A DNA stretch of 64,000 nt from an uncultured SAR324 cluster bacterium (lineage in GTDB: Bacteria; SAR324; NAC60-12): positions 771,040 through 835,039 of the forward strand of contig CAJJCY010000002.1 of NCBI GenBank assembly GCA_905182865.1, written 5' to 3'. The notes under the pieces are model-generated. The model saw only the letters and a program-made list of their open reading frames with translations. It ran no database searches and had not been told where the DNA came from. The position numbers and the translations under genes were made by a program. Below are positions 2,700 to 58,445 of this stretch, piece after piece. The first letter of the stretch is position 1, and the number at the start of each line of letters is the position of its first letter.

Positions 2700-3806
2700 T
2701 TATGAATTAGAGATTTTCCTGTCCTCAAAATACTGAAGAAGTATTTCGTTGAAAAGCAGCATGTCACGATAATCAATTGCACCAATGTTGGCAATCCTGA
2801 AAGTATCTTGTTTGGCTCCTTTTCCAGGATAGATTGTGATATCGTTTTCATAAAAATAGTCATGCATTTCCATAAAATCGTAGTTTGGGGATTGCGGTTC
2901 TACGATTGCCGTCAACAGCTTGGAGTGTTGTGATTTGGGCAGAAGGAGTTCCAGACCGACTTTATCAATACCATCCAGCAGAGTCTCATAAGCTTTGAAG
3001 TAGCGTGCAGTCCGTCCTGCCTGTGTCTCTTCAAAAAACTCATCCAGAGCTGCATTAAGAGCATAAACAATCTGCACAGGAGGCGTGAATTGAAATTGAC
3101 CGGTTTTTTCAATATAACTGTGATTTCCCAGCAAATTAAGGTAAAGATTCCGTGCTGGGAATTTTGCAGTTTTTAAGAGTTTTTCATTATTTGCAATCAC
3201 AAAACTTGTACCTGCCATGCCTTGAATACACTTGTTCGAAGAAGATATTAAATAATCAATCGGCAGTTCCTGCAAGTCAATGGGGAGTCCTGCATAAGAG
3301 GACATGGCATCAACAATTGAATCAACTTCATATTTTTGGCAAAGTTCTAATAGTTCCGGCAGGGGGTTGAGCATTCCAGTAGTTGTTTCGTGATGCACAA
3401 AAGCGAAGTGCGTCAGTTCTCGGTCCTGCTGAAATATTGATTCAATTTCCGCCACGTCCGGATATTCCCCCCAACCGATTCTGTATGTCCGGTGCGAAAT
3501 GCCATAGGCTTGAATAATCGTTTCTCCACGCTTGCCATAAGCGCCATTATCGAGAATTAGAATTTTGCCGTCCGGAGCTACTACCGAACTCAAGGCCGCT
3601 TCAACTCCGGCAGTTCCAGATCCGGCAAAAATGACAGCACTATGAGTCAAATTGCCATTAACCACCTGAACCACTTTTTTTAAAACGGACTGGGTGAGGT
3701 CACCAAATTCCTGTTCGCGGGGACAAATGTCCGGGACCATCAGTGCCTGCTTGACGCTGTCAGTCGTTGTGGCTGGACCTGGATTGAGAAGGATATTACG
3801 TTTCAT
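2700..3806 (-). CDS. phnW: 2-aminoethylphosphonate--pyruvate transaminase
   Basis: From MKRNILLNPGPATTT (ATG at 3806). Class-V aminotransferase blocks match remembered PhnW: HHETTTGMLNP, VDAMSSYAGLPID, DYLISSSNKCIQG, FRIANIG. Confidence 0.85.
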   Translation of the reverse strand: MKRNILLNPGPATTTDSVKQALMVPDICPREQEFGDLTQSVLKKVVQVVNGNLTHSAVIFAGSGTAGVEAALSSVVAPDGKILILDNGAYGKRGETIIQAYGISHRTYRIGWGEYPDVAEIESIFQQDRELTHFAFVHHETTTGMLNPLPELLELCQKYEVDSIVDAMSSYAGLPIDLQELPIDYLISSSNKCIQGMAGTSFVIANNEKLLKTAKFPARNLYLNLLGNHSYIEKTGQFQFTPPVQIVYALNAALDEFFEETQAGRTARYFKAYETLLDGIDKVGLELLLPKSQHSKLLTAIVEPQSPNYDFMEMHDYFYENDITIYPGKGAKQDTFRIANIGAIDYRDMLLFNEILLQYFEDRKISNS

Positions 3807-4254
3807 GAGATAATTAGCTTGGACTGTTGAGAAATTATGAGTGAATTCTTCTTTAATAATGTTAAATATTACTAAATTTTTTCGTATCTGTAAAATGCAA
3901 ATAAACAATTCTTCAGATTGATTAAATCAATAGTAGTAAAATATTTTAAGATAAACAGGGCTTACTAAAAAAAAATTCTTGTCATCCTGAATTTAATCCG
4001 TGATCCAGATTCCCAAAAAGGTTGAGTCCAGGAAGTGAGAAGTAACAACCTTTATACTCGTGATTAATCTCCTTGGAAAATAAACTCAAACAACAGAGGT
4101 ACAGGGCTTATGTTATTTTTCAGGAAAACCACTTGCATTTGATTCCATGGGGATTTTATCCTAATGATATTATTATAAAATATTATTTTTTAGGAAGCTT
4201 ACTATTTTTGAATGAAAAAAACTTACTATTGTTTAAATCAATAGATAAGATACA

Positions 4255-5227: not shown

Positions 5228-6161
5228 ATGTTAAAACCTTCTGAATCGGAAACAGCGTCTCTTGATACTCAAGGTTCGCTGTTTTTACAAATCAGCTATA
5301 CCCAACTTCGTTCTTTTCATGCAGTTGCGGGTACAGGAGGTTTTACTGCCGCCTCCAAAGTACTCCATGTGGGACAACCCACCATAACTGCACAGGTACG
5401 GGCCCTGGAAGAATTTTATGGTGTTGAGCTGTTCCACCGCCGTGGCCGTAGAGTTGAGCTGACTGAAACAGGAATGGAACTCTATGCTGTCACTCAGCGC
5501 ATGGAAATATTAGAAAGAGAAGCCCAGGATGTGCTTCAGACTGCAGGAGGGTTTCAGAGTGGTCATCTCAGGGTTGGAGCCGTTGGACCTTATCATTTGA
5601 CGGAAATGCTGGCTGTTTTTCATGAACGGTTTCCATATTTGAAAATCACAGTCACAGTTCGAAATTCAGAAGATATTTTAGAAAACCTGTTAAATTCATC
5701 CAGTAGATGTTGCAGTACTTTCACAAACAGAAACCGATTCCAGAATTTTAGCAGTTCCGTTTTGTCAGGAACCTCTGGTTGTTTTTGTACATTCAGGACA
5801 CCCCTGGGCAAGTCGGGAGACTCTCCGGATCGAAGAGTTGGAAGGTCAGGATGTTATATTACGTGAACCTGGTTCTACAACACGTCGTGCTTTTGAAAAA
5901 GCATTGAAGCAGACTGGGGTCACGATTCGTCCGGTAATGGAAATCGGCAGCAGGGAAGCAGTCTGGATGGCCGTGGCCAGGGGTTTGGGAATCGGAGTGG
6001 TCTCGAATCTGGAGTTTATGCCGCATCCTAACTTACGAAAATTAAGTTTTGTCAATGAGGATGTATACACTCATGCACATGTAGGTTGTCTGCGTGAACG
6101 TCGAGATTCCCGAATGATTAACGAATTTTTTCAGATTGTGGAAGAGTTACGTCAAACTTGA
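5228..6161 (+). pseudogene. LysR-family transcriptional regulator next to phnX, split by one frameshift near 5694-5703
   Basis: The N-terminal HTH (YTQLRSFHAVAGTGGFTAASKVLHVGQPTITAQVRALEEFYGVELFHRRGRR) is in frame 2. After ...ILENLLN the LysR-like text continues in frame 0 (VDVAVLSQTETDSRILAVPFCQEPLVVFVHSGHPWASRETLRIEELEGQDVILREPGSTTRR...). The track shows the gene as two ORFs, 5228-5866 and 5838-6161. Confidence 0.75.
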
Positions 6162-6743
6162 TTCCTGACTGTGTCTTGCGTTATAAACCTGACCTCCAAG
6201 ATCAACATAAAGCTGTAAAACAGCTCGGCCTTCACTGCGCAGTAATTCAGGTACAATTTTAATTCCCCTACGTTCAAGCTGCGCGTTATAATCCAGGGGG
6301 GTAGGGCCTTCATCAAAACCGGTAATCTTTTCCACGTCTTCCGGTTCTGCAGATGACAACACCTCACTGACTCCAGACCAGCAGACATTACCCAGACACA
6401 TTGCACACATTTTTCCACTTGTTACCAGGCGGTGTTCTGGAAAACCGTCCGCACCCAAATCAAAGTGTCCCAACTCTTTTTGAGCCAGCATCAGAGCCAT
6501 CATTTCTGCATGCGCAGCAGAGCAGTTTTGCCGGACAACTACGTTGACTCCAACAGATACCAGCTTCCCGGAATCCCGTTCAAAAACTGCAGAACCAAAT
6601 GGTCCGCCTGTTTCCTCACGTATGTTACGCTCTGTCAATGCGAGGACGAAGCGCATTTGTTTTTCTGGATCAGGAATTATTTTTGGATATTCATTTAAAA
6701 AAGAATTAATCCAGTCGGGAAGACTGAGGTTCAGTTGGTTCAT
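6147..6743 (-). CDS. CDA-fold zinc deaminase (guanine deaminase / nucleoside deaminase-like)
   Basis: GGPFGSAVF, HAEMMAL (H-A-E zinc/catalytic motif) and KMCAMCLG (C-x-x-C) in the order typical of the cytidine/deoxycytidylate deaminase fold. ATGA overlap with the xdhC stop. Confidence 0.7.
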   Translation of the reverse strand: MNQLNLSLPDWINSFLNEYPKIIPDPEKQMRFVLALTERNIREETGGPFGSAVFERDSGKLVSVGVNVVVRQNCSAAHAEMMALMLAQKELGHFDLGADGFPEHRLVTSGKMCAMCLGNVCWSGVSEVLSSAEPEDVEKITGFDEGPTPLDYNAQLERRGIKIVPELLRSEGRAVLQLYVDLGGQVYNARHSQESSLT

Positions 6744-7576
6744 AATTTTTCAGGTACTGGATTACGAAGATGTGTTTTTCCAAAAAGTTTGTCCCGCTCA
6801 TAAAGCAGTTGGGAGGTGATGCTGATGGCAATTTCCTGTGGATGATTTCCTCCGAGTGAAAAACCAAGAGGACAAACAAGACGCTCTGTTTGTTCTTTGC
6901 TTAGACCTTCTTTTTTGAGTTCACGTTTCAAAGTAGCTGCTTTTGAACGACTGCCGATTACTCCTAAAAACGGCAATTCTTTCCGTGCAAGAAATCGTTG
7001 TGCAACATAAAAATCACTCCTGTGTCCCTGTGTCATTACCAAAACAAAAGCTTTTTTGGAAATCTCTTCAACACTTTCAGGAAGTGATTCTACACAAAGT
7101 TTTTTTAGTTTTGGAGTTTCAGGTAATTTGCTCAACCACTCATTCCTGGTGTCAAGGCAAGTCAGTTTACACTCCAGAGTCAGCATCAGCGGTATCAGGG
7201 CCTGAGCAACATGACCGGCCCCAAAAACAATTATTTCCCAGGGATTAGCATGGAATCGCTCAAAAAAGAGTTTGACTGAACCGCCGCAACTCATACCTGC
7301 ATCACGATTGAGGTTCCATTCAATAAATTTTGTTTGTTCTGTGGGATTAGTTTCTGCTAATAAAACCTGAGCAAATTCCAAGGCCTTTGCCTCAACCAGT
7401 CCACCTCCAATTGTACCGGAATGCAGGCCTGATGTAGTAACCAGCATACGCCCACCCTGGGCACGTGGTGTACTTCCTTTAACCTCAACCAGTGTTGCAG
7501 ATACAAATGAAGTTCCTTCTTCCAGCAAAGCCTGCATTTTTTTGAGATGATTTTCCATATCTGTTATTTGACTCAA
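6740..7576 (-). CDS. XdhC/CoxI-family accessory protein (molybdenum cofactor insertion chaperone family)
   Basis: ATLVEVKGSTPRAQGGRMLV...GTIGGGLVEAKA N-domain plus a Rossmann-like IIVFGAGHVAQAL segment. The start is either TTG at 7576 or ATG at 7558 (MENHLKK). Confidence 0.75.
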   Translation of the reverse strand: MSQITDMENHLKKMQALLEEGTSFVSATLVEVKGSTPRAQGGRMLVTTSGLHSGTIGGGLVEAKALEFAQVLLAETNPTEQTKFIEWNLNRDAGMSCGGSVKLFFERFHANPWEIIVFGAGHVAQALIPLMLTLECKLTCLDTRNEWLSKLPETPKLKKLCVESLPESVEEISKKAFVLVMTQGHRSDFYVAQRFLARKELPFLGVIGSRSKAATLKRELKKEGLSKEQTERLVCPLGFSLGGNHPQEIAISITSQLLYERDKLFGKTHLRNPVPEKL

Positions 7577-39820: not shown

Positions 39821-39942
39821 GTTTATTCAGATCTAATTTGACAACCGAGTTATCCCCATCTTTCGGCTGTTAGACTCAGTTTACGTTTACTCTGAATTCA
39901 TGTTGTTTTCAGGGCTTTTTATATATTTAATTGGAGATACAA

Positions 39943-40401
39943 ATGATTGCAGTTGGTTCGGAAGCACCGGATTTTAAATTGGCCAGTCAGTTTGATACGG
40001 AGTTTTCCTTGAGTGAGTTCAAAGGAGAAAAGAATGTAATGCTGTTGTTTTATCCACTTGACTGGACTGGCACCTGAAGCAGGGAGATACCCAAAATTGA
40101 GTCGATGATTGATCGATTCAAGGAGGCAGACACTCAAGTATTGGGTGTGAGCATTGACAGTAAACATTCACATAAAAAATGGGCTGAGTCCCTTGGCGGT
40201 GTGTCTTATCCACTGCTGCAGGATTTCCATCCAAAAGGCTCCATGGCGACTTCTTATGGAACTTATTTGGAGAATAAAGGTTTTGCAGCTCGATCAACAG
40301 TTATAGTAGACAAGCAGGGCTCTGTTCGATATTCCGTTATGGCAAATGGAGAGCGCATCATTACTGAGCTTTTAAATGAGTGCCAAAAAATAAACGGTTA
40401 A
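39943..40401 (+). CDS. peroxiredoxin (AhpC/TSA/BCP fold) with in-frame TGA (40075-40077) at the peroxidatic Cys position; probable selenoprotein
   Basis: GGAGA RBS 5 nt before ATG 39943. The frame is open except for one TGA: ...NVMLLFYPLDWTGT[TGA]SREIPKIESMIDRFKEADTQVLGVSIDSKHSHKKW..., so the PxxxTxxC motif has TGA in place of C. The track lists only the 3' part (40105-40401). Confidence 0.7.
40097..40121 (+). promoter_or_regulatory. SECIS-like hairpin downstream of the in-frame UGA
   Basis: UUGAGUCGAU-GAUUG-AUCGAUUCAA: 10 bp including one G-U, with a 5-nt loop containing G and U. The stem starts about 20 nt and the loop about 30 nt after the UGA, within the range I recall for bacterial SECIS elements. 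Confidence 0.5.
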
Positions 40402-40431: not shown

Positions 40432-40461
40432 GGCGGTCTCTGTTTTGACCGCTTTTTTTTT
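40432..40461 (+). terminator. rho-independent terminator after the peroxiredoxin gene
   Basis: GCGGTC-tctgtttt-GACCGC followed by T9 (40453-40461). Confidence 0.75.
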
Positions 40462-40486
40462 GCAAAAAAAGTTGAAGTGGTCAAGG

Positions 40487-40720
40487 ATGGTACTCTATTT
40501 CTACGAAGACTGTGAATATTCGCAAGTTGTACTGAACACGATTACCAGTTTACATATAAAGGATAAGTTCACATTCAAGGATATCCGCCTGAATCCGGAC
40601 TATGCAAAAGAACTTGTAGAACTTACAGGCGATGTGACAGTACCCTGCCTGGTAAATGCGGAGGGTCCTATGAAAGAGGCAAAAGATATCCGTGAATACC
40701 TTGTTTCGAATTTCATTTAA
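40487..40720 (+). CDS. glutaredoxin-like small thioredoxin-fold protein with C-x-x-S motif
   Basis: MVLYFYEDCEYSQVVLN...VTVPCLV... has the layout of small Grx/NrdH-like proteins. The track start (40430) would include the terminator, so ATG 40487 or TTG 40472 is preferred. The RBS is poor. Confidence 0.55.
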   Translation: MVLYFYEDCEYSQVVLNTITSLHIKDKFTFKDIRLNPDYAKELVELTGDVTVPCLVNAEGPMKEAKDIREYLVSNFI

Positions 40721-40792: not shown

Positions 40793-41341
40793 TTACAAAT
40801 CGTCTGACAGTGCTTTTTTTTGTTCCGATGTGAGAGATGTTTCCTCTTTAAATAAAGGATGATCTGAACCAATTGCTACAGGTACTTTCCCCTTCGTATT
40901 GAACTTAATGTATTGAACAGAAGACAGTCGACCATCTCCAATTTGTCTTTCGTCAAAAGTTGCCCTTATACGAGTTTTATCCTCTAATTTTAGATATAGA
41001 TGCATTGGCAATTCAAGCCACTTGCTCAGTTTGTCATCTCTTTCCACAGGATCATCAATTTCTATCAAAAGCGTACATCCTAACTCTCCGGACACACCAA
41101 GAATTTCATTGTAGGTTTTTATTTCATGCTGGATATCTGCCTCTTTTACAATACGTTCCACCCGCATCATTTCCTGAATTTGGTAACAAACAGTATCTTT
41201 GTTTTCAAACAGGAATGACAAAACACCTCCAACATTAATTCTGCGGACCTCCTTTATTTTCATTATGTTTTCACGAACTTCACTTCGCTGATCTTCATAA
41301 GTTACATAGTCCATAATTTCTTTACGGCTGACATGCTTCAT
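40793..41341 (-). CDS. DUF3501-family protein
   Basis: 182 aa. Recognised from memory of the DUF3501 pattern (...VRRINVGGVLSFLFENKDTVCYQIQEMMRVE...) and its typical neighbourhood with a CCG-domain Fe-S protein and rubrerythrin. Confidence 0.6.
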   Translation of the reverse strand: MKHVSRKEIMDYVTYEDQRSEVRENIMKIKEVRRINVGGVLSFLFENKDTVCYQIQEMMRVERIVKEADIQHEIKTYNEILGVSGELGCTLLIEIDDPVERDDKLSKWLELPMHLYLKLEDKTRIRATFDERQIGDGRLSSVQYIKFNTKGKVPVAIGSDHPLFKEETSLTSEQKKALSDDL

Positions 41342-41391: not shown

Positions 41392-42729
41392 TTATTTGTT
41401 ATTGGTATCATCAGAACGATAAGCCTCTGCAAGGATGGACATGGGGTGTTTGGGTTTCACTCCTGCATGTTGTTTAAACTGAAGTGCCGCAAGGGGACAG
41501 TCGGTAACCCATACTTCAGTTTCTTCGTTTTTCATTCCATCAAATGATTTTTGACCAATTCGTTTGGAGGCATCAAAGCTCTCAACTTTCATGGCATAAG
41601 TCCCATCGTGTCCGCAACATTCCATGACAGTTTTCATTTTTGAACCTGTCACTTTATTAATTAAATCCCGTCCCTTAAAGCCAATTCCTTGAGCCCTTAA
41701 ATGGCAAGGAGCATGATAGCTAATGGCTTCTGTTGGCAAATTATGCGTGTCCGTGTTAAACCTGTCTTCATTCCGAATGTTCCATAAAAATTCTGAAGGA
41801 TCGTTTATTGCTCCTGATAATTTTTTGGCTCTTTCACGATCCTCACCTTCCAGGAGTTCCGGATACTCCCGTCTCATCATCATTGCACAGGTTGGGTTGA
41901 TCGCCAGGACCATGCTGCCCTGTTCCACAAACGGCATAAGAATATCCAGATTATGTTTTGCATTGGCACGTAATGTTTTCAAATCTCCCTGCTCCCATGC
42001 CGGCATCCCACAGCACTTCAATCCTTTTACACAAGCACAGTCTACCTTATTTTTTTCCAGCACTTCTAGCGTATCTTTACCAATTTGTGGTTCATTGTGC
42101 TGGACATAACATGTTTGAAATAAAACGGTTTCTGATTTTTTATTTTTACGAATCAGTCCCTTTTTAGTTGCCCATTTTTCAAATGTCGAAAAACTGAAAT
42201 CAGGCAGTAATTTTTCTCGATGAATGCCAAGCAATTTTTCCATAAACCATCGATGGGCTCCGACCCGGTTCATTACATTTGCAATTCCGAAACTCGCACG
42301 GGCCATACCGGCAGATTTATCGGGATTTCCTAAAATTTTATCACGCAAGCTCCTGGGTTTGTTTATGGAATGGATTGCTCTATGACGATGAACTAGTTTG
42401 GGGAAATCGAGTTTAAACTGGTGTCCATCTCGAACAGAATAAGGACACTGAACTTCACACAATTTACACTGAAAACATGCATCCATGACCTGTTGTGTTT
42501 CCTGTGGTTTAATCTTTTTTACATCTCCATCGTATTGTTTGTCTATGAAATTAAAGAGCGTAGGAAAGGAGTCACAATACTTAAAACACATTCTGCAACC
42601 ATGGCAAATTTCAAATGTCCTTTCAATTTCTTTATCTAGCGCAGCCTTATCCCAATACATTGAATCACTGGGATCATAAGTTAAACCGTCTGTTGGCAAA
42701 TAAGATATTCTAGATTTATTTTCTTCCAT
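41392..42729 (-). CDS. HdrD/GlpC-like iron-sulfur protein (2x[4Fe-4S] binding motifs plus two CCG cysteine-rich domains)
   Basis: CHGCRMCFKYCDSFP and CFQCKLCEVQCPY ferredoxin-type motifs. CCG motifs LKCCGMPAWE and MECCGHDGTY. Confidence 0.8.
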   Translation of the reverse strand: MEENKSRISYLPTDGLTYDPSDSMYWDKAALDKEIERTFEICHGCRMCFKYCDSFPTLFNFIDKQYDGDVKKIKPQETQQVMDACFQCKLCEVQCPYSVRDGHQFKLDFPKLVHRHRAIHSINKPRSLRDKILGNPDKSAGMARASFGIANVMNRVGAHRWFMEKLLGIHREKLLPDFSFSTFEKWATKKGLIRKNKKSETVLFQTCYVQHNEPQIGKDTLEVLEKNKVDCACVKGLKCCGMPAWEQGDLKTLRANAKHNLDILMPFVEQGSMVLAINPTCAMMMRREYPELLEGEDRERAKKLSGAINDPSEFLWNIRNEDRFNTDTHNLPTEAISYHAPCHLRAQGIGFKGRDLINKVTGSKMKTVMECCGHDGTYAMKVESFDASKRIGQKSFDGMKNEETEVWVTDCPLAALQFKQHAGVKPKHPMSILAEAYRSDDTNNK

Positions 42730-42808: not shown

Positions 42809-43228
42809 TCAGGAAACACTGTCTGCCATTTGTTGAAATCGACCGGCATGAGATTTTTCTGCTTTTGCCAATGTTTCAAACCAATCGGCAATTTCTGAAA
42901 AGCCTTCTTCTCTAGCTGTTTTTGCCATGCCTGGATACATATCTGTGTATTCATGCGTTTCACCTTGTACTGCTGAAGCTAAATTATCTAGCGTATCTCC
43001 AATAGGTAGACCTGTTGCAGGATCACCAACTTCTTTCAAATAATCCAGATGCCCATGAGCGTGCCCAGTTTCTCCTTCTGCGGTTTCACGAAAATTACTT
43101 GCTATTTCAGGATAACCCTCAATGTCAGCGGCTTTTGCAAAATAAAGATAACGTCTATTTGCTTGAGATTCTCCTGCAAATGCATCTTTGAGGTTTTCGT
43201 GAGTTTTTGTTCCATTCAAATTACTCAT
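42809..43228 (-). CDS. rubrerythrin-family diiron protein lacking the rubredoxin domain
   Basis: THENLKDAFAGESQANRRYLYF, EGETGHAHGH, GETHEYTDMY and KAEKSHAGRF form two E..EXXH diiron half-sites. 139 aa with no C-terminal CxxC pairs. Confidence 0.85.
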   Translation of the reverse strand: MSNLNGTKTHENLKDAFAGESQANRRYLYFAKAADIEGYPEIASNFRETAEGETGHAHGHLDYLKEVGDPATGLPIGDTLDNLASAVQGETHEYTDMYPGMAKTAREEGFSEIADWFETLAKAEKSHAGRFQQMADSVS

Positions 43229-43407
43229 ATTCTACTCCTTTTTGAAGTTCATGCACAGGCCTTTGGTTTTACATCCGACAATGAGGTGAATGATATGACT
43301 TTTTATAATTATAAAATTATTAAATTGATTTGTCTAATCGTTTATTATTATTATATTGATAGGTAATATCTATTAATATCGATTAACCCATTGTTTGAGG
43401 AGTGATT

Positions 43408-44352
43408 ATGAATCTGAGAGATTTGGAATATCTTGCAGCTGTTGGAGAATATAAACATTTTCGAAAAGCTGCAGAAAAATGTTATGTGAGCCAACCAACT
43501 TTGAGCGGACAACTAAAGAAATTAGAAGACCACATTGGCGCTCAACTGGTTGAACGAACCACCAGAAATGTCTTTTTGACACCCATTGGTGAAGAAATAG
43601 TAAAAATATCACGGAGAATTTTGGCTGATGCGGCTTCCATTGAAAATATGGTTTCAACCTATACTGATCCTATGAGCGGCACACTCAATGTTGGTCTAAT
43701 TCCAACAATAGCACCTTATCTTTTGCCCTTGATTGTGCAACCTATAAATCAAGCTTATCCTCAACTGGAAATTATCTTACAGGAAGTTCAAACAGAAGTT
43801 ATGTTGAAAAAACTTAGTGAAGGAACATTAGATGCGGGAATCTTAGCAGTTCCTCTAGAAATGAGAGGACTTGAAGAGATCATTCTATACACAGAACCAT
43901 TTTATGTTGCTGCTAACAATCAGCACCCATTTGCTGCTAAATTATCAATCAAGATAGAGGATTTACAGGATGAAACTCTATTATTACTGGAAGAAGGACA
44001 TTGCTTGAGAGGGCAGGTTATGGATGTTTGTTCACAAACTATGACCAAAGAAAGAAAAAATTTCCAGGGTACAAGTCTGGAAACAATCAGACATATGGTA
44101 TCTACTGGTATTGGGATTACCCTGATTCCACAAACTGCAATTGATTATAATAATCTAATTCAAAATTCTTCTATCAAATATATTCCGTTTAAAAACCCTG
44201 CCCCTGCTAGAAGAGTTGGATTATTATTTCGGAAAACTTCCAATAGAAAAGTATGTTTTAAAAAATTAGCTGCTTCGATTCAAAGTATCATTCAAAAAGA
44301 ATTTTTACTGGAAGAAACTGTAGAGGTCCTTCCAGTAAAATTGAACAGATAG
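43408..44352 (+). CDS. oxyR: LysR-family hydrogen-peroxide sensor OxyR
   Basis: MNLRDLEYLAAVGEYKHFRKAAEKCYVSQPTLSGQLKKLE HTH, and the redox-Cys region LLLLEEGHCLRGQVMDVC as in OxyR. GAGGAG RBS. Divergent from rubrerythrin. Confidence 0.8.
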   Translation: MNLRDLEYLAAVGEYKHFRKAAEKCYVSQPTLSGQLKKLEDHIGAQLVERTTRNVFLTPIGEEIVKISRRILADAASIENMVSTYTDPMSGTLNVGLIPTIAPYLLPLIVQPINQAYPQLEIILQEVQTEVMLKKLSEGTLDAGILAVPLEMRGLEEIILYTEPFYVAANNQHPFAAKLSIKIEDLQDETLLLLEEGHCLRGQVMDVCSQTMTKERKNFQGTSLETIRHMVSTGIGITLIPQTAIDYNNLIQNSSIKYIPFKNPAPARRVGLLFRKTSNRKVCFKKLAASIQSIIQKEFLLEETVEVLPVKLNR

Positions 44353-44393: not shown

Positions 44394-44885
44394 TCAGGTT
44401 TCCTCAAGTCCCCTCTTCATTATCAACTTCCCGGAACGCACCATTTCCACAAGCCCCATTGGTTCCAGTAGTTTTTCAAGGGCATCAATTTTTAATGAAT
44501 CGCCGGTCGTTTCAATCACAAGAGACTGATCCGTAATGTCTACTGTTTTTGCACGAAACACCTCTACAATCTGGAAAATTTCTGCACGCTGATCAGGCTT
44601 TGCCCTTACTTTAAATAATGCCATCTCCCGATCCACAATATCCGCAGAAGGGTGACTGGCGGCATGAACAACATCTACTAATTTATTCAGTTGCCGCAGT
44701 ATTTGGTCGTATGAGCTCGGTACACCTTGTACTACTACAGTAATTCTTGAAAAGTTGGTATTGTGCGCCGGTGAAACGACCAGTGAGTCCACGTTATAAC
44801 CACGACGCGCAAATGTTTGAGCAATCCTGACAAGAACTCCGGGCTTGTTACAAACATAAATACTGATTGCAAATTTTTCTTCCAT
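44394..44885 (-). CDS. ilvH: acetolactate synthase small (regulatory) subunit
   Basis: ACT domain ISIYVCNKPGVLVRIAQTFARRGYNVDSLVVSP, and a C-terminal domain ending LIMKRG. Confidence 0.9.
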   Translation of the reverse strand: MEEKFAISIYVCNKPGVLVRIAQTFARRGYNVDSLVVSPAHNTNFSRITVVVQGVPSSYDQILRQLNKLVDVVHAASHPSADIVDREMALFKVRAKPDQRAEIFQIVEVFRAKTVDITDQSLVIETTGDSLKIDALEKLLEPMGLVEMVRSGKLIMKRGLEET

Positions 44886-44990
44886 AAAAGCCTGATTGTG
44901 ATTAATTATGATCGACTATTCAGCAGGACATCGATTAAAAATATAAAATTTAAACAGTAATAAAAGCTGATTTTTCACCTATTTCAGAGA

Positions 44991-46681
44991 TCAAGTACTG
45001 CCAACGGGCTTTTTAAGTTTCTTGCTTGCCGGAGGTTCATCAATTAACATTTCGCTGACTGCAGCTCCTGCAGGAATCATTGGGAAAACATTATCACCTT
45101 TGACAACTTCTGCTTCAATAATGCAGGGACCATCGTTGTAGGCCAGAGCTTTTTTTAACACTTTGGTCACATCACCTGAACGCCTCAGATGAAAACCCTT
45201 GATTCCATATGCTTCCCCAATTTTGACAAAATCCGGATTACCTTCCATATCCACACCACTTTCACGTTTTTCAAAAAACAGCTGTTGCCATTGTCTTACC
45301 ATGGAGTATTGTTGTTGATAATCAAAATTTTGAGTGGCAACTTGTTAATTGCAGCCGTTGCCAGCTCTGACATAGTCATTTGGAAACCGCCGTCACCCAC
45401 AACAGCAACTACAAGATCTTCTGGGTTTCCAAGTTGTGCTCCAATAGCTGCGGGGAAACCGTATCCCATTGTTCCAGCTCCTCCGCTAGAAAGCCATTGG
45501 CGTTCGCGGGTTGATCTGCAGAATTGGGCAGCCCACATTTGGTGTTGGCCGACATCCGTAGCAATAATAGCATTGGATCCGGTTAAACGGTCCAGTTCAG
45601 CTAAAACATGTTGTGCGCGCAAACCTCCACGCTTTGGATATTTTAAGGGGTGTTTCTTTTTCCAGTTCTCAATTTTCTTCAGCCACTCTTTGGTATCAAG
45701 CTGCTTTACCAGAGGAATCAATTCATCCAGACCAAACTGCATCTCCCTACGGCGATGTACAATGATTTTTCCAAATTCAGCAGGATCGATGTCTATATGT
45801 AATTTTTGTGCGTTTGGACAAAATTCACTAACTTTGCCAGTTACACGATCATCAAAACGTGTTCCAATAGCAATTAATAAATCACATTCGCTAACAGCAA
45901 AATTGGCATAAGCTGTTCCATGCATCCCTAACATACCTAAAGACAACGGATGGTTTTCATTAAACGAACCTTTTCCCATTAATGTTGTTGTAATTGGAAT
46001 AGAAAATAATTCAGCTAATTTTAATAATTCTTTATGAGTATTAGAAATAATGGCACCTCCCCCTACATAAAATAAAGGTTGCGATGCTTGACTAATCATT
46101 TTTAAAACTTGTAGTATTTGGTTATCACTAGTTTTGAATTGAAAACGGTATCCTTTCAATTTTAAAATATCTTTTTGTTGAATTGGTTTATAATTTGTAA
46201 ACTCTTCCAAAACGGGTCCAGGACGACCTGTTGAGGCTAGATGGAATGCTTCTTTAATAATTCTTGACAAGTCTTTTACTTCCCTGACAAGATAACTGTG
46301 TTTGACTACAGGCATTGTCACACCAAACACATCGGCCTCCTGAAAAGCATCTTTACCCAAATTGGGCGTGATGGTTTGTCCTGTTAGAACCACAAGAGGT
46401 ACTGAATCCATATGAGCAGTGAGTATCCCCGTGACAGTGTTAGTCGCCCCGGGTCCGGAAGTCACCAAAACCACTCCGGTTTTTCCAGTAGCTTTCGCAT
46501 AACCGTCCGCCATGTGCGTTGCCGCCTGTTCATGACGAACAAGGACGTGCTTCATTTTATCCTGCCTGAATAGTGCATCATAAATATGAAGCACCGCACC
46601 GCCGGGATAACCGAAAACGTAATCCACGTCCTCTTCCTGCAATGAGCGAATCAGGATATCGCCCCCAGATAGCATTTCCAC
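44991..46681 (-). pseudogene. ilvB: acetolactate synthase large subunit with one frameshift near 45303-45304
   Basis: ThDP-enzyme blocks (GYPGGAVLHIYDAL, GPGATN, and the ThDP motif GDGGFQMTMSELATA...ILIINN). The expected ...MVRQWQQLFF continuation is in another frame (track ORF 44991-45302). One extra C on the coding strand would restore it. Confidence 0.85.
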
Positions 46682-57063: not shown

Positions 57064-57426
57064 ATGACTATTGCATCAGGCTATCTGCCGATATTAATTA
57101 TGATTGTGCTGGGAATCATTCTGGCAGGTGCGTTTAGCTGTATCGGACTTTTTCTGGGACCAAAACTTAGAGGGGAAGTTAAGGAGACCCCCTTTGAATC
57201 AGGTTTGCTTAGAGATGGAATGGCAGGACAACGATATGATGTTAAATTTTATATGACTGCTTTGGTCTTTCTAATTTTTGACGTAGAGGTGGTATTTCTT
57301 TATCCCTGGGCAGTGCAGATTCGCGAATTAGGGTGGTTTGGTTTTTTGGCCAGCTCAGTTTTTTTAGGAATACTGATTCTTGGTTTGGCTTACGATTGGA
57401 AAAAAGGTGCGCTGGAATGGGAGTAA
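57064..57426 (+). CDS. nuoA: NADH-quinone oxidoreductase subunit A
   Basis: 120 aa with three TM segments. ETPFESG...YDVKFYMTALVFLIFDVEVVFLYPWA is the NuoA/ND3 signature. Confidence 0.9.
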   Translation: MTIASGYLPILIMIVLGIILAGAFSCIGLFLGPKLRGEVKETPFESGLLRDGMAGQRYDVKFYMTALVFLIFDVEVVFLYPWAVQIRELGWFGFLASSVFLGILILGLAYDWKKGALEWE

Positions 57427-57520: not shown

Positions 57521-57696
57521 ATGCCGTTTAAATACAGGCAAATTGAGAGAAACCTAAAATAATGGGATTTCAAGTTGTTCGTCAAAAAGATTCTCATGTT
57601 ATTTTCTTAAATGGAAGGGACACTTTCCCGGTACCAAAGCACGGTTTAAATGATATATTAATAGGAGTGGAACGTCAGTTGTTAAAAATTCTGTAA
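57521..57696 (+). pseudogene. hicA: HicA-family mRNA-interferase toxin (orphan), with a frameshift in an A4 run (57556-57559)
   Basis: ATG 57521 gives MPFKYRQIERNLK then a stop. The next frame gives MGFQVVRQKDSHVIFLNGRDTFPVPKHGLNDILIGVERQLLKIL*. Reading A5 instead of A4 joins them into a 58-aa HicA-like protein (GF..VRQKGSH...P.H pattern). Too short for the ORF track. Confidence 0.55.
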
Positions 57697-57752
57697 ACTA
57701 CAAAAGAGGAATTTAGAAATATCAAATAATGTTAACTTAACAGGAACTAATT

Positions 57753-58445
57753 ATGGAAACAGATTATGGTGGTTTTAAAACCACAAAATTTGACAGTGTA
57801 GTCAATTGGTCCAGGAAATTTTCGCTTTTTCAGTATCCGTTTGTAACTGCTTGCTGCGGAATGGAGTACATGGCCGCAGCCTGCTCACATTATGATATGT
57901 CACGTTTTGGTGCAGAAATTCCCAGATTTTCACCTAGACAGGCGGACGTTCTCTGGGTAGTAGGAACAATCACTCATAAAATGACACCGATCCTCAAGAC
58001 GATTTATGATCAGATGGCAGATCCAAAGTGGGTGATTGCTTTTGGCGCATGTGCATCTTCCGGAGGATTCTATCAAAATTACTCTGTACTTCAGGGAATT
58101 GACCGTTTGATTCCAGTTGATCTTTATATCGCAGGTTGTCCTCCGAGACCCGAAGCTGTGCTGGACGGACTTATTGAGTTGCAGAATAGCATTCAGAATG
58201 ATGGCCCGACTGCCAACGGCATTACTCCAACTGCCATCAGGCATAAAGATCAAAAAGCAGATCAGCTAAATCGATACTTTGAAATATCCAAAAAAGAAGT
58301 CTTTGAAAATTTACAAAATCCTAAAAGCAACCGCATCAGCAAACCGGGATTCACGTATTCTGAAGATTTCATCAATGTCAGTCCTCATATTGGCTATGAC
58401 TCTCCAAGAATGCAGAAAGATAAAGCTGCTCTTAAAGAAAAATAA
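57753..58445 (+). CDS. nuoB: NADH-quinone oxidoreductase subunit B with about 70-aa C-terminal extension
   Basis: [30 protein letters not shown] and IAGCPPRPE supply the N2-cluster cysteines. Extra Lys-rich tail after ...LQNSIQN. Confidence 0.9.

Follow-up and report, generated by a model that had tools for sequence, protein, structure and literature searches.

The window, that is, the whole 64-kb stretch of SAR324 DNA analysed here, contains on its forward strand a single reading frame (39943-40401) that starts with an ATG (39943-39945), ends with a TAA (40399-40401) and is broken only once in frame, by a TGA at 40075-40077 that corresponds to codon 45. A Shine-Dalgarno-like GGAGA (39933-39937, forward strand) precedes the ATG at 39943 with a 5-nt spacer. 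An earlier note on this DNA had described the same arrangement, with a frame open from the ATG at 39943, GGAGA 5 nt upstream and the TGA as the only interruption, and its translation matches the one obtained here. Translation, Pfam and the match to AhpE jointly delineate a complete coding sequence (39943-40401, forward strand) for a putative selenocysteine (Sec) peroxiredoxin of 152 residues that is AhpE-like.

The mechanical list of open reading frames gives only two pieces at this locus, 39931-40077 (48 aa) and 40105-40401 (98 aa). The second piece, also on the forward strand, is the one reported by gene callers; it restarts at Met55 and is an artefact of the stop at the TGA. The same 98-aa stubs, called 'alkyl hydroperoxide reductase subunit AhpC', are found in public databases (P0034-P0098), where one cluster of them is present on 186 contigs. 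Both the ORF list and these database stubs bear out the earlier claim that the locus is mis-called as a truncated gene. The apparently full-length database proteins (P0001-P0036) have a Trp at the Sec position, which is the signature of code-4 translation of short contigs, and some of them also run through the true stop codon. Apart from these Trp forms, most database entries are 98-aa stubs.

Beyond a small glutaredoxin-like gene described below, Pfam and NCBIfam searches assigned three genes on the reverse strand, encoding a DUF3501 protein (40793-41341), a GlpC-like CCG/4Fe-4S protein (41392-42729) and a rubrerythrin (42809-43228), followed on the forward strand by an OxyR-type LysR regulator (43402-44352), which scores 328.5 bits against the NCBIfam OxyR model NF008361 (cut-off of 329). 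In the flanks (2.5-3 kb) of other Sec-peroxiredoxin loci, DUF3501 recurs in 19, the GlpC-like gene in 13 and rubrerythrin in 11. These recurring neighbours extend to loci beyond the closest (SAR324-type) relatives of the window (L032, L038, L039, L043, L046, L053, L060 and L063). Surroundings that comprise DUF3501, GlpC-like, rubrerythrin and OxyR genes fit a role in peroxide defence.

Several genes in and around the window are broken or unusually placed. The gene for the large subunit of acetolactate synthase, a TPP enzyme, has an early stop (45296-46681, reverse strand); its C-terminal part (…YSMVRQWQQLFFE… to …KKPVGST) is encoded below 45296 in a different frame, immediately upstream of the gene for the small subunit (44394-44885), and the entire region spans 44990-46681. 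The break is a one-base frameshift, which reflects an indel in the assembly or else a pseudogene. A LysR-type regulator on the forward strand is divided between two frames, one with the HTH part (5228-5866) and the other with the substrate domain (5838-6218); the same split appears in the gene calls of the source contig (L100 6230-7163), and is likely a second assembly indel. An ORF of 44 aa that matches HicA_toxin in Pfam (about 57560-57700, equivalent to 5322-5456 of L096, among near-identical contigs) sits between nuoA (57064-57426) and nuoB (57753-58445), which is odd in an NADH dehydrogenase operon. Two further splits lie outside the window: a NifU-like gene in a near-identical NCBI assembly (L097 16432-17015) is divided by an insertion of ~155 bp into 51 + 109 aa, compared to 142 aa elsewhere, and an aconitase-family large-subunit gene of the source contig (L100 18566-19941), which adjoins a LeuD-like small subunit, is divided into 57 + 403 aa.

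Peroxiredoxin domain and downstream hairpin

With Cys put in place of the stop, the product matches the Pfam AhpC/TSA family (PF00578) at an E value of 7e-36 (123.3 bits vs a cut-off of 26), and the alignment of residues 4-130 covers profile positions 1-123 of 124. The motif at the locus reads P38-L-D-W-T42-G-T-(TGA)45, in which the TGA occupies the last position of PxxxTxxC. This whole-domain match supports what the earlier note had read from the motif, namely that the TGA falls on the C of PxxxTxxC in an AhpC/TSA peroxiredoxin. The residues expected around the active site are almost invariant among 83 unique homologues: Pro38 is kept in 80/83, Thr42 in 82/83, and both Sec45 and Arg117 in 83/83. 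A second cysteine, Cys147, is present in 66/83 of these homologues and may be the resolving residue; of the 17/83 that miss it, 16 have a Cys at position 76 or 84.

The nearest solved structure is that of AhpE from Mycobacterium tuberculosis, which matches residues 1-135 with an E value of 4e-28 and 50/135 identical residues, and the Cys45 of AhpE is aligned with codon 45 of the window gene. In AhpE, Cys45 is the active site (PMC6178380). On the strength of this similarity to AhpE, the protein is predicted to belong to the thioredoxin-type fold family, in which the catalytic residue would stand at the beginning of a helix. Comparison of subfamily scores gave 101 bits for AhpE entries, against 88 for the best Prx1-type and 55 for the best BCP-type sequences; moreover, the window protein is short (152 aa) and devoid of a C-terminal extension, as is the AhpE-type subfamily. 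Cys-form homologues, which had been expected to align at the TGA, indeed do so, as seen for Cys45 of AhpE and for P0106, P0108 and P0119, the latter three at 46-54% identity. The best NCBIfam match is PrxU, a clostridial selenoprotein (NF040737), at 77.3 bits, far under the equivalog cut-off of 270, and the window protein is therefore not a PrxU orthologue.

Downstream of the TGA and within the coding sequence, the forward strand contains a SECIS-like hairpin (40097-40121), recognized from its fold, its position in homologues, synonymous recoding and covariation. Its 10-bp stem is composed of the arms 40097-40106 and 40112-40121, which enclose the loop GAUUG (40107-40111). The hairpin starts 19 nt and the loop 29 nt after the TGA; the 10-bp GAUUG hairpin that had been noticed earlier at ~20 nt past the TGA is thus recovered at a place typical of bacterial SECIS elements, and it proves to be structurally conserved. 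Folding of the 61 nt from the TGA on gives -16.3 kcal/mol, a stability reached by 3/200 dinucleotide shuffles (z = -2.8), and permutation of the synonymous codons of this segment with the protein kept gave z = -3.0 with 0/100 as stable; therefore, the window hairpin is more than chance. The hairpin itself has an energy of -11.0 kcal/mol, as computed on the identical 69-nt segment in L016.

Similar hairpins are found throughout the family. Among 74 unique sequences, the loop of the best hairpin is located 16-37 nt after the UGA in 73 (median 28), and the hairpin energy is -7.5 kcal/mol or better in 63. The bSECISearch model reportedly asks for an apical loop 16-37 nt from the UGA whose first or second nucleotide is a G; the window hairpin has such a G, as do 33/74 minimum-energy hairpins of the family. 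The stem reads UUGAGUCGAU/AUCGAUUCAA in the closest (SAR324-type) relatives of the window, ACCUUCAGG/CUUGAAGGU in the gammaproteobacterial clade and GGCGUGGAAGC/GCUUCCGCGCC in GC-rich clades.

Alternatively, the hairpin at 40097-40121 might not be a SECIS element at all, being a side effect of the encoded residues (Glu GAR vs Phe UUY) or serving another role, such as mRNA stability. Part of the stem is indeed set by conserved residues, with Glu codons facing Phe codons and Glu53 placed opposite the invariant Phe59. In addition, no SECIS family of Rfam matches, neither in a scan of the whole window with gathering thresholds nor in 40040-40180 with hits up to E<=10 admitted, and the loop G rule fails in more than half of the family hairpins counted above. 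An Rfam DnaX frameshift-element hit on 40040-40180 (E 3.7) was rejected as a chance match.

Because conserved residues account for part of the complementarity, synonymous codons were permuted within each gene, with the protein and codon usage kept. Under this permutation, the post-UGA region has a mean z of -1.59, and p<=0.05 is reached by 45% of sequences; in two control regions of the same genes, the mean z values are -0.37 and -0.69, and 7-8% of sequences reach this level. The sequences are related, and the pooled statistics hence overstate their independence. For 24 sequences sharing one register, a choice that in itself favours structure, 79% of cells are paired versus 30-49% with the partner slid, 8/15 pairs change on both sides, and 0/500 shuffles reach the observed covariation. 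RNAalifold on a codon-wise alignment of 13 sequences returned a stem of just four pairs, because the hairpin shifts by a few nt between clades; it was superseded by per-sequence folding, register analysis and the pair count in one register. The stability in excess of synonymous permutation and beyond both control regions, the persistence of a stem that AT-rich and GC-rich clades build from different bases, and the constant position relative to the UGA all argue against a hairpin without SECIS function, which we consider unlikely.

Conservation and decoding of the TGA codon

A scan of one genome per species yielded 12 loci, six of which are SAR324-related (five SAR324 MAGs and one complete chromosome) and six gammaproteobacterial, and a metagenome scan retrieved 80 further loci from ocean, sediment and soil samples. 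Codon 45 is TGA in 12/12 genome loci and 80/80 metagenome loci, which amounts to 93/93 with the window included, in homologues that share 52-99% protein identity. Together with the alignment to Cys45 of AhpE, this conservation points to the in-frame TGA (40075-40077, forward strand) as Sec codon 45 at the peroxidatic position of a PxxxTxxU motif. A comparison of 14 unique close relatives gave pN/pS values of 0.17 upstream of the TGA (43 codons) and 0.21 downstream of it (107 codons); thus, both parts are translated in frame. The 44 N-terminal codons, which are under purifying selection (0.17), belong to the family; the earlier note had named their not belonging to it as an outcome that would speak against its proposal.

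The two pieces produced by mechanical ORF calls could in principle be genuine products, a 44-residue peptide and a 98-residue protein from the ATG at 40105, which act separately or as a split enzyme, and the 98-aa entries do dominate the databases. However, the Met at the start of the 98-aa ORF (Met55) is present in just 20/93 homologues and is replaced by Leu, Asn, Arg, Lys and others in the remainder. The homologues begin with the same Met as the complete frame (39943). The Pfam domain and the AhpE alignment also run unbroken across the TGA, and the 98-aa piece lacks Pro38, Thr42 and the catalytic residue. We therefore regard two separate products as very improbable.

There is equally little to recommend decoding of the TGA as Trp, Gly or another standard residue, whether by an alternative code or by near-cognate read-through. 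Many database entries do show W (P0001-P0036), as a result of applying code 4 to short contigs; however, TGA terminates 22/58 long ORFs of the window and is thus an ordinary stop of the standard genetic code. Moreover, the same TGA occurs in lineages as unrelated as SAR324, Gammaproteobacteria and soil bacteria, and it matches the peroxidatic Cys, a position at which Trp or Gly would abolish activity. When the window was scanned for further ORFs with read-through of a single TGA, no convincing candidate emerged besides the peroxiredoxin gene.

An artefact of sequencing or assembly at the TGA, or a nonsense mutation of recent date that left a broken Cys-peroxiredoxin gene, can practically be dismissed, since the errors seen in this assembly (the frameshift in the acetolactate synthase gene near 45296 and the LysR split at 5228-6218) are indels and not substitutions, the TGA is shared by 93/93 sequences from independent assemblies and habitats, and purifying selection acts on both flanks of a codon that is followed by a conserved hairpin. 

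Searches with ARAGORN, and with tblastn using E. coli SelA, SelB and SelD from NC_000913, detected no selA, selB, selD or tRNA-Sec gene in the 64-kb window and 98 other loci (about 0.5 Mb), nor were Sec genes present in the 10 kb flanking either end of the window. Ten ORFs of suitable length that were considered as candidates for the Sec machinery proved to be other proteins. In Table 1 of PMC5029168, two SAR324 single-cell genomes, which are incomplete, are listed with SelD and without other Sec components or selenoproteins. Since SAR324 MAGs keep a conserved Sec-peroxiredoxin gene, it is suggested that the Sec pathway is present in SAR324 yet was missed.

Elsewhere in the window, three genes on the reverse strand encode a cysteine-desulfurase-like protein (Aminotran_5; 2700-3908), an ABC transporter component (1353-2390) and a XdhC/CoxI-family protein (6740-7576). 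The cysteine-desulfurase-like gene adjoins the ABC transporter, whose solute-binding protein is encoded in the window and whose permease and ATPase are encoded just outside it (L100), and the XdhC/CoxI-family gene is close to both. Genes of pfam00266 and ABC ATPase genes are reported near orphan selD genes in Peng et al. (PMC5029168); no selD was found near the cysteine-desulfurase-like, ABC and XdhC genes of the window.

The glutaredoxin-like gene and the proposed redox cycle

The forward-strand ORF at 40487-40720 begins 85 nt past the stop codon of the peroxiredoxin gene and encodes a glutaredoxin-like protein of 77 aa, as assigned from Pfam matches, linkage and fusion. Its product scores 29.8 bits against Pfam Glutaredoxin (PF00462; cut-off of 22.9) and 32.9 bits against GST_N_3 (cut-off of 22). 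It has the motif C-E-Y-S after the first strand, and a cis-Pro motif T-V-P at residues 51-53. A weak NCBIfam 'Uxx-star' match raised the idea of a second selenoprotein, which was rejected: the gene ends with TAA, has no in-frame TGA, and the family carries CxxS or CxxC in 77/77 copies.

Among the 86 informative loci, namely related loci with enough DNA downstream, the glutaredoxin-like gene lies directly downstream on the same strand in 63, is fused in 14 as a domain at the peroxiredoxin C-terminus, and is absent in nine. The gap between the two genes is only 13-22 nt in many loci, and about 85-90 nt in the close relatives of the window. Fusions occur with a Sec form (P0099) as well as with Cys forms (P0106 and P0108). 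The partner motif is CxxS in 67/77 copies and CxxC in 10/77, and TGA is never found within it. The CxxC carriers, either partner genes or fused domains, are from L074; L021, L026-L028, L034, L048, L064, L085, L086 and L092, and the Cys-form fusion P0108 reads C-P-H-C. This CxxC minority suggests that members of the family may have switched between a monothiol and a dithiol mechanism.

Gene linkage and fusions indicate that the glutaredoxin-like protein is probably the reductant of the Sec peroxiredoxin. A terminator-like hairpin with a T-run (40432-40462, forward strand), found by a pattern scan as a consensus match only, separates the two genes in the window, and the argument for their coupling is accordingly a comparative one. 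A Sec-containing AhpE-like peroxiredoxin and a CxxS glutaredoxin-like protein may even constitute a dedicated, hitherto undescribed two-component selenoperoxidase system in SAR324, marine Gammaproteobacteria and soil bacteria, with the components fused in some lineages, a proposal that we put forward tentatively and rate as somewhat short of an even chance. If it is true, the 'orphan SelD' of SAR324 would serve ordinary selenocysteine synthesis.

Altogether, we hold with high confidence that 39943-40401 encodes a 152-residue AhpE-like peroxiredoxin with Sec at the TGA codon 45, a SECIS hairpin and a probable glutaredoxin-like recycling partner. By analogy with the established bacterial mechanism, the hairpin 19 nt past the UGA would act as the SECIS element during translation: SelB with Sec-tRNA(Sec) would bind the hairpin and put Sec at the UGA, displacing release factor 2, after which the ribosome would continue to the TAA that ends at 40401. 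The enzyme is predicted to be a peroxidase, in which a selenolate held in a pocket of Pro38, Thr42 and Arg117 would attack the peroxide and be converted to a selenenic acid. Judging from linkage and fusion, the oxidised peroxiredoxin would probably be recycled by the CxxS glutaredoxin-like protein (40487-40720), possibly via a selenenylsulfide formed with Cys147, which is conserved in most homologues, and the electrons would ultimately come from glutathione or a different small thiol. This proposed route parallels the reduction of AhpE by mycoredoxin-1.

The most immediate consequence is a correction of annotation. Public records of the gene show either the 98-residue stub or a Trp in the catalytic position, and surveys of antioxidant enzymes and selenium use based on such collections therefore miss it; the cut-off of the nearest curated selenoprotein model (PrxU) is not reached by the window protein either. 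In addition, SAR324, an abundant deep-ocean lineage that the genome table of PMC5029168 lists with orphan SelD only, carries a conserved selenoprotein gene. The locus also points to a tight pairing of peroxiredoxin and glutaredoxin-like protein. The finding leaves the knowledge of how selenoproteins or peroxiredoxins work unchanged.

Comparison with known peroxiredoxin systems

Sec-containing peroxiredoxins are well documented. The selenoprotein families listed for the GOS data include 'Prx, pfam00578, TxxU', with 253 members (PMC2398784, Table 2). A tally of sequenced bacteria has this family in 78 of them (PMC5029168, Table 3), and a 2026 review includes Prx, with the motif PxxxTxxU, among the experimentally verified families (PMC13188914). 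The statement of the earlier note that the family is not new is in line with the first and the last of these sources. Most simply, the window gene would be a member of the marine Prx TxxU family, known from Sargasso Sea and GOS metagenomes, a placement that fits every feature tested. The two share the Pfam domain, the Sec position, the PxxxTxxU motif and the marine habitat, as well as the type of evidence, i.e., a TGA/Cys pair with a downstream hairpin, and the family as outlined by Zhang and Gladyshev in 2008 (PMC2398784) displays no essential difference from the window locus. The sections of PMC2398784, PMC5029168 and PMC13188914 drawn on here describe neither a SAR324 host, nor an AhpE-like placement, nor a linked CxxS glutaredoxin-like gene. 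The kind of peroxiredoxin is thus known; what the locus adds, in a modest way, is the linkage to a partner gene and a host in SAR324. Sec peroxiredoxins are a well-known marine selenoprotein family that gene callers routinely cut short, and the window gene is therefore a mis-annotated new member.

PrxU of Eubacterium acidaminophilum (Söhling et al. 2001, cited in PMC13188914) likewise has Sec at the peroxidatic position. However, the PrxU profile NF040737 comprises 233 positions, compared to the 152 aa of the AhpE-like short form in the window. The window protein would work like PrxU, though it is not an orthologue.

AhpE (Rv2238c; PDB 1xxu and 4x0x), which is recycled by the glutaredoxin-like mycoredoxin-1 (PMC6178380), resembles the window protein closely in size, with 153 versus 152 aa, and residue 45 is catalytic in both. 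They differ in their redox chemistry: AhpE is a mycothiol-dependent, one-Cys enzyme with Cys at the active site, whereas the window protein would have Sec and usually possesses a second cysteine, Cys147. Moreover, the window protein comes from Gram-negative lineages, in which glutathione is expected in place of the mycothiol on which AhpE depends.

A further parallel is provided by hybrid peroxiredoxin-glutaredoxin proteins such as PGdx of Haemophilus influenzae, in which the two domains share a gene or are otherwise encoded jointly, and the peroxiredoxin is reduced by the glutaredoxin. These hybrids are Prx5-type enzymes with Cys, and their glutaredoxin motif is CxxC. By contrast, the window family is AhpE-like with a predicted Sec, and the motif of its glutaredoxin-like partner is mostly CxxS (67/77).
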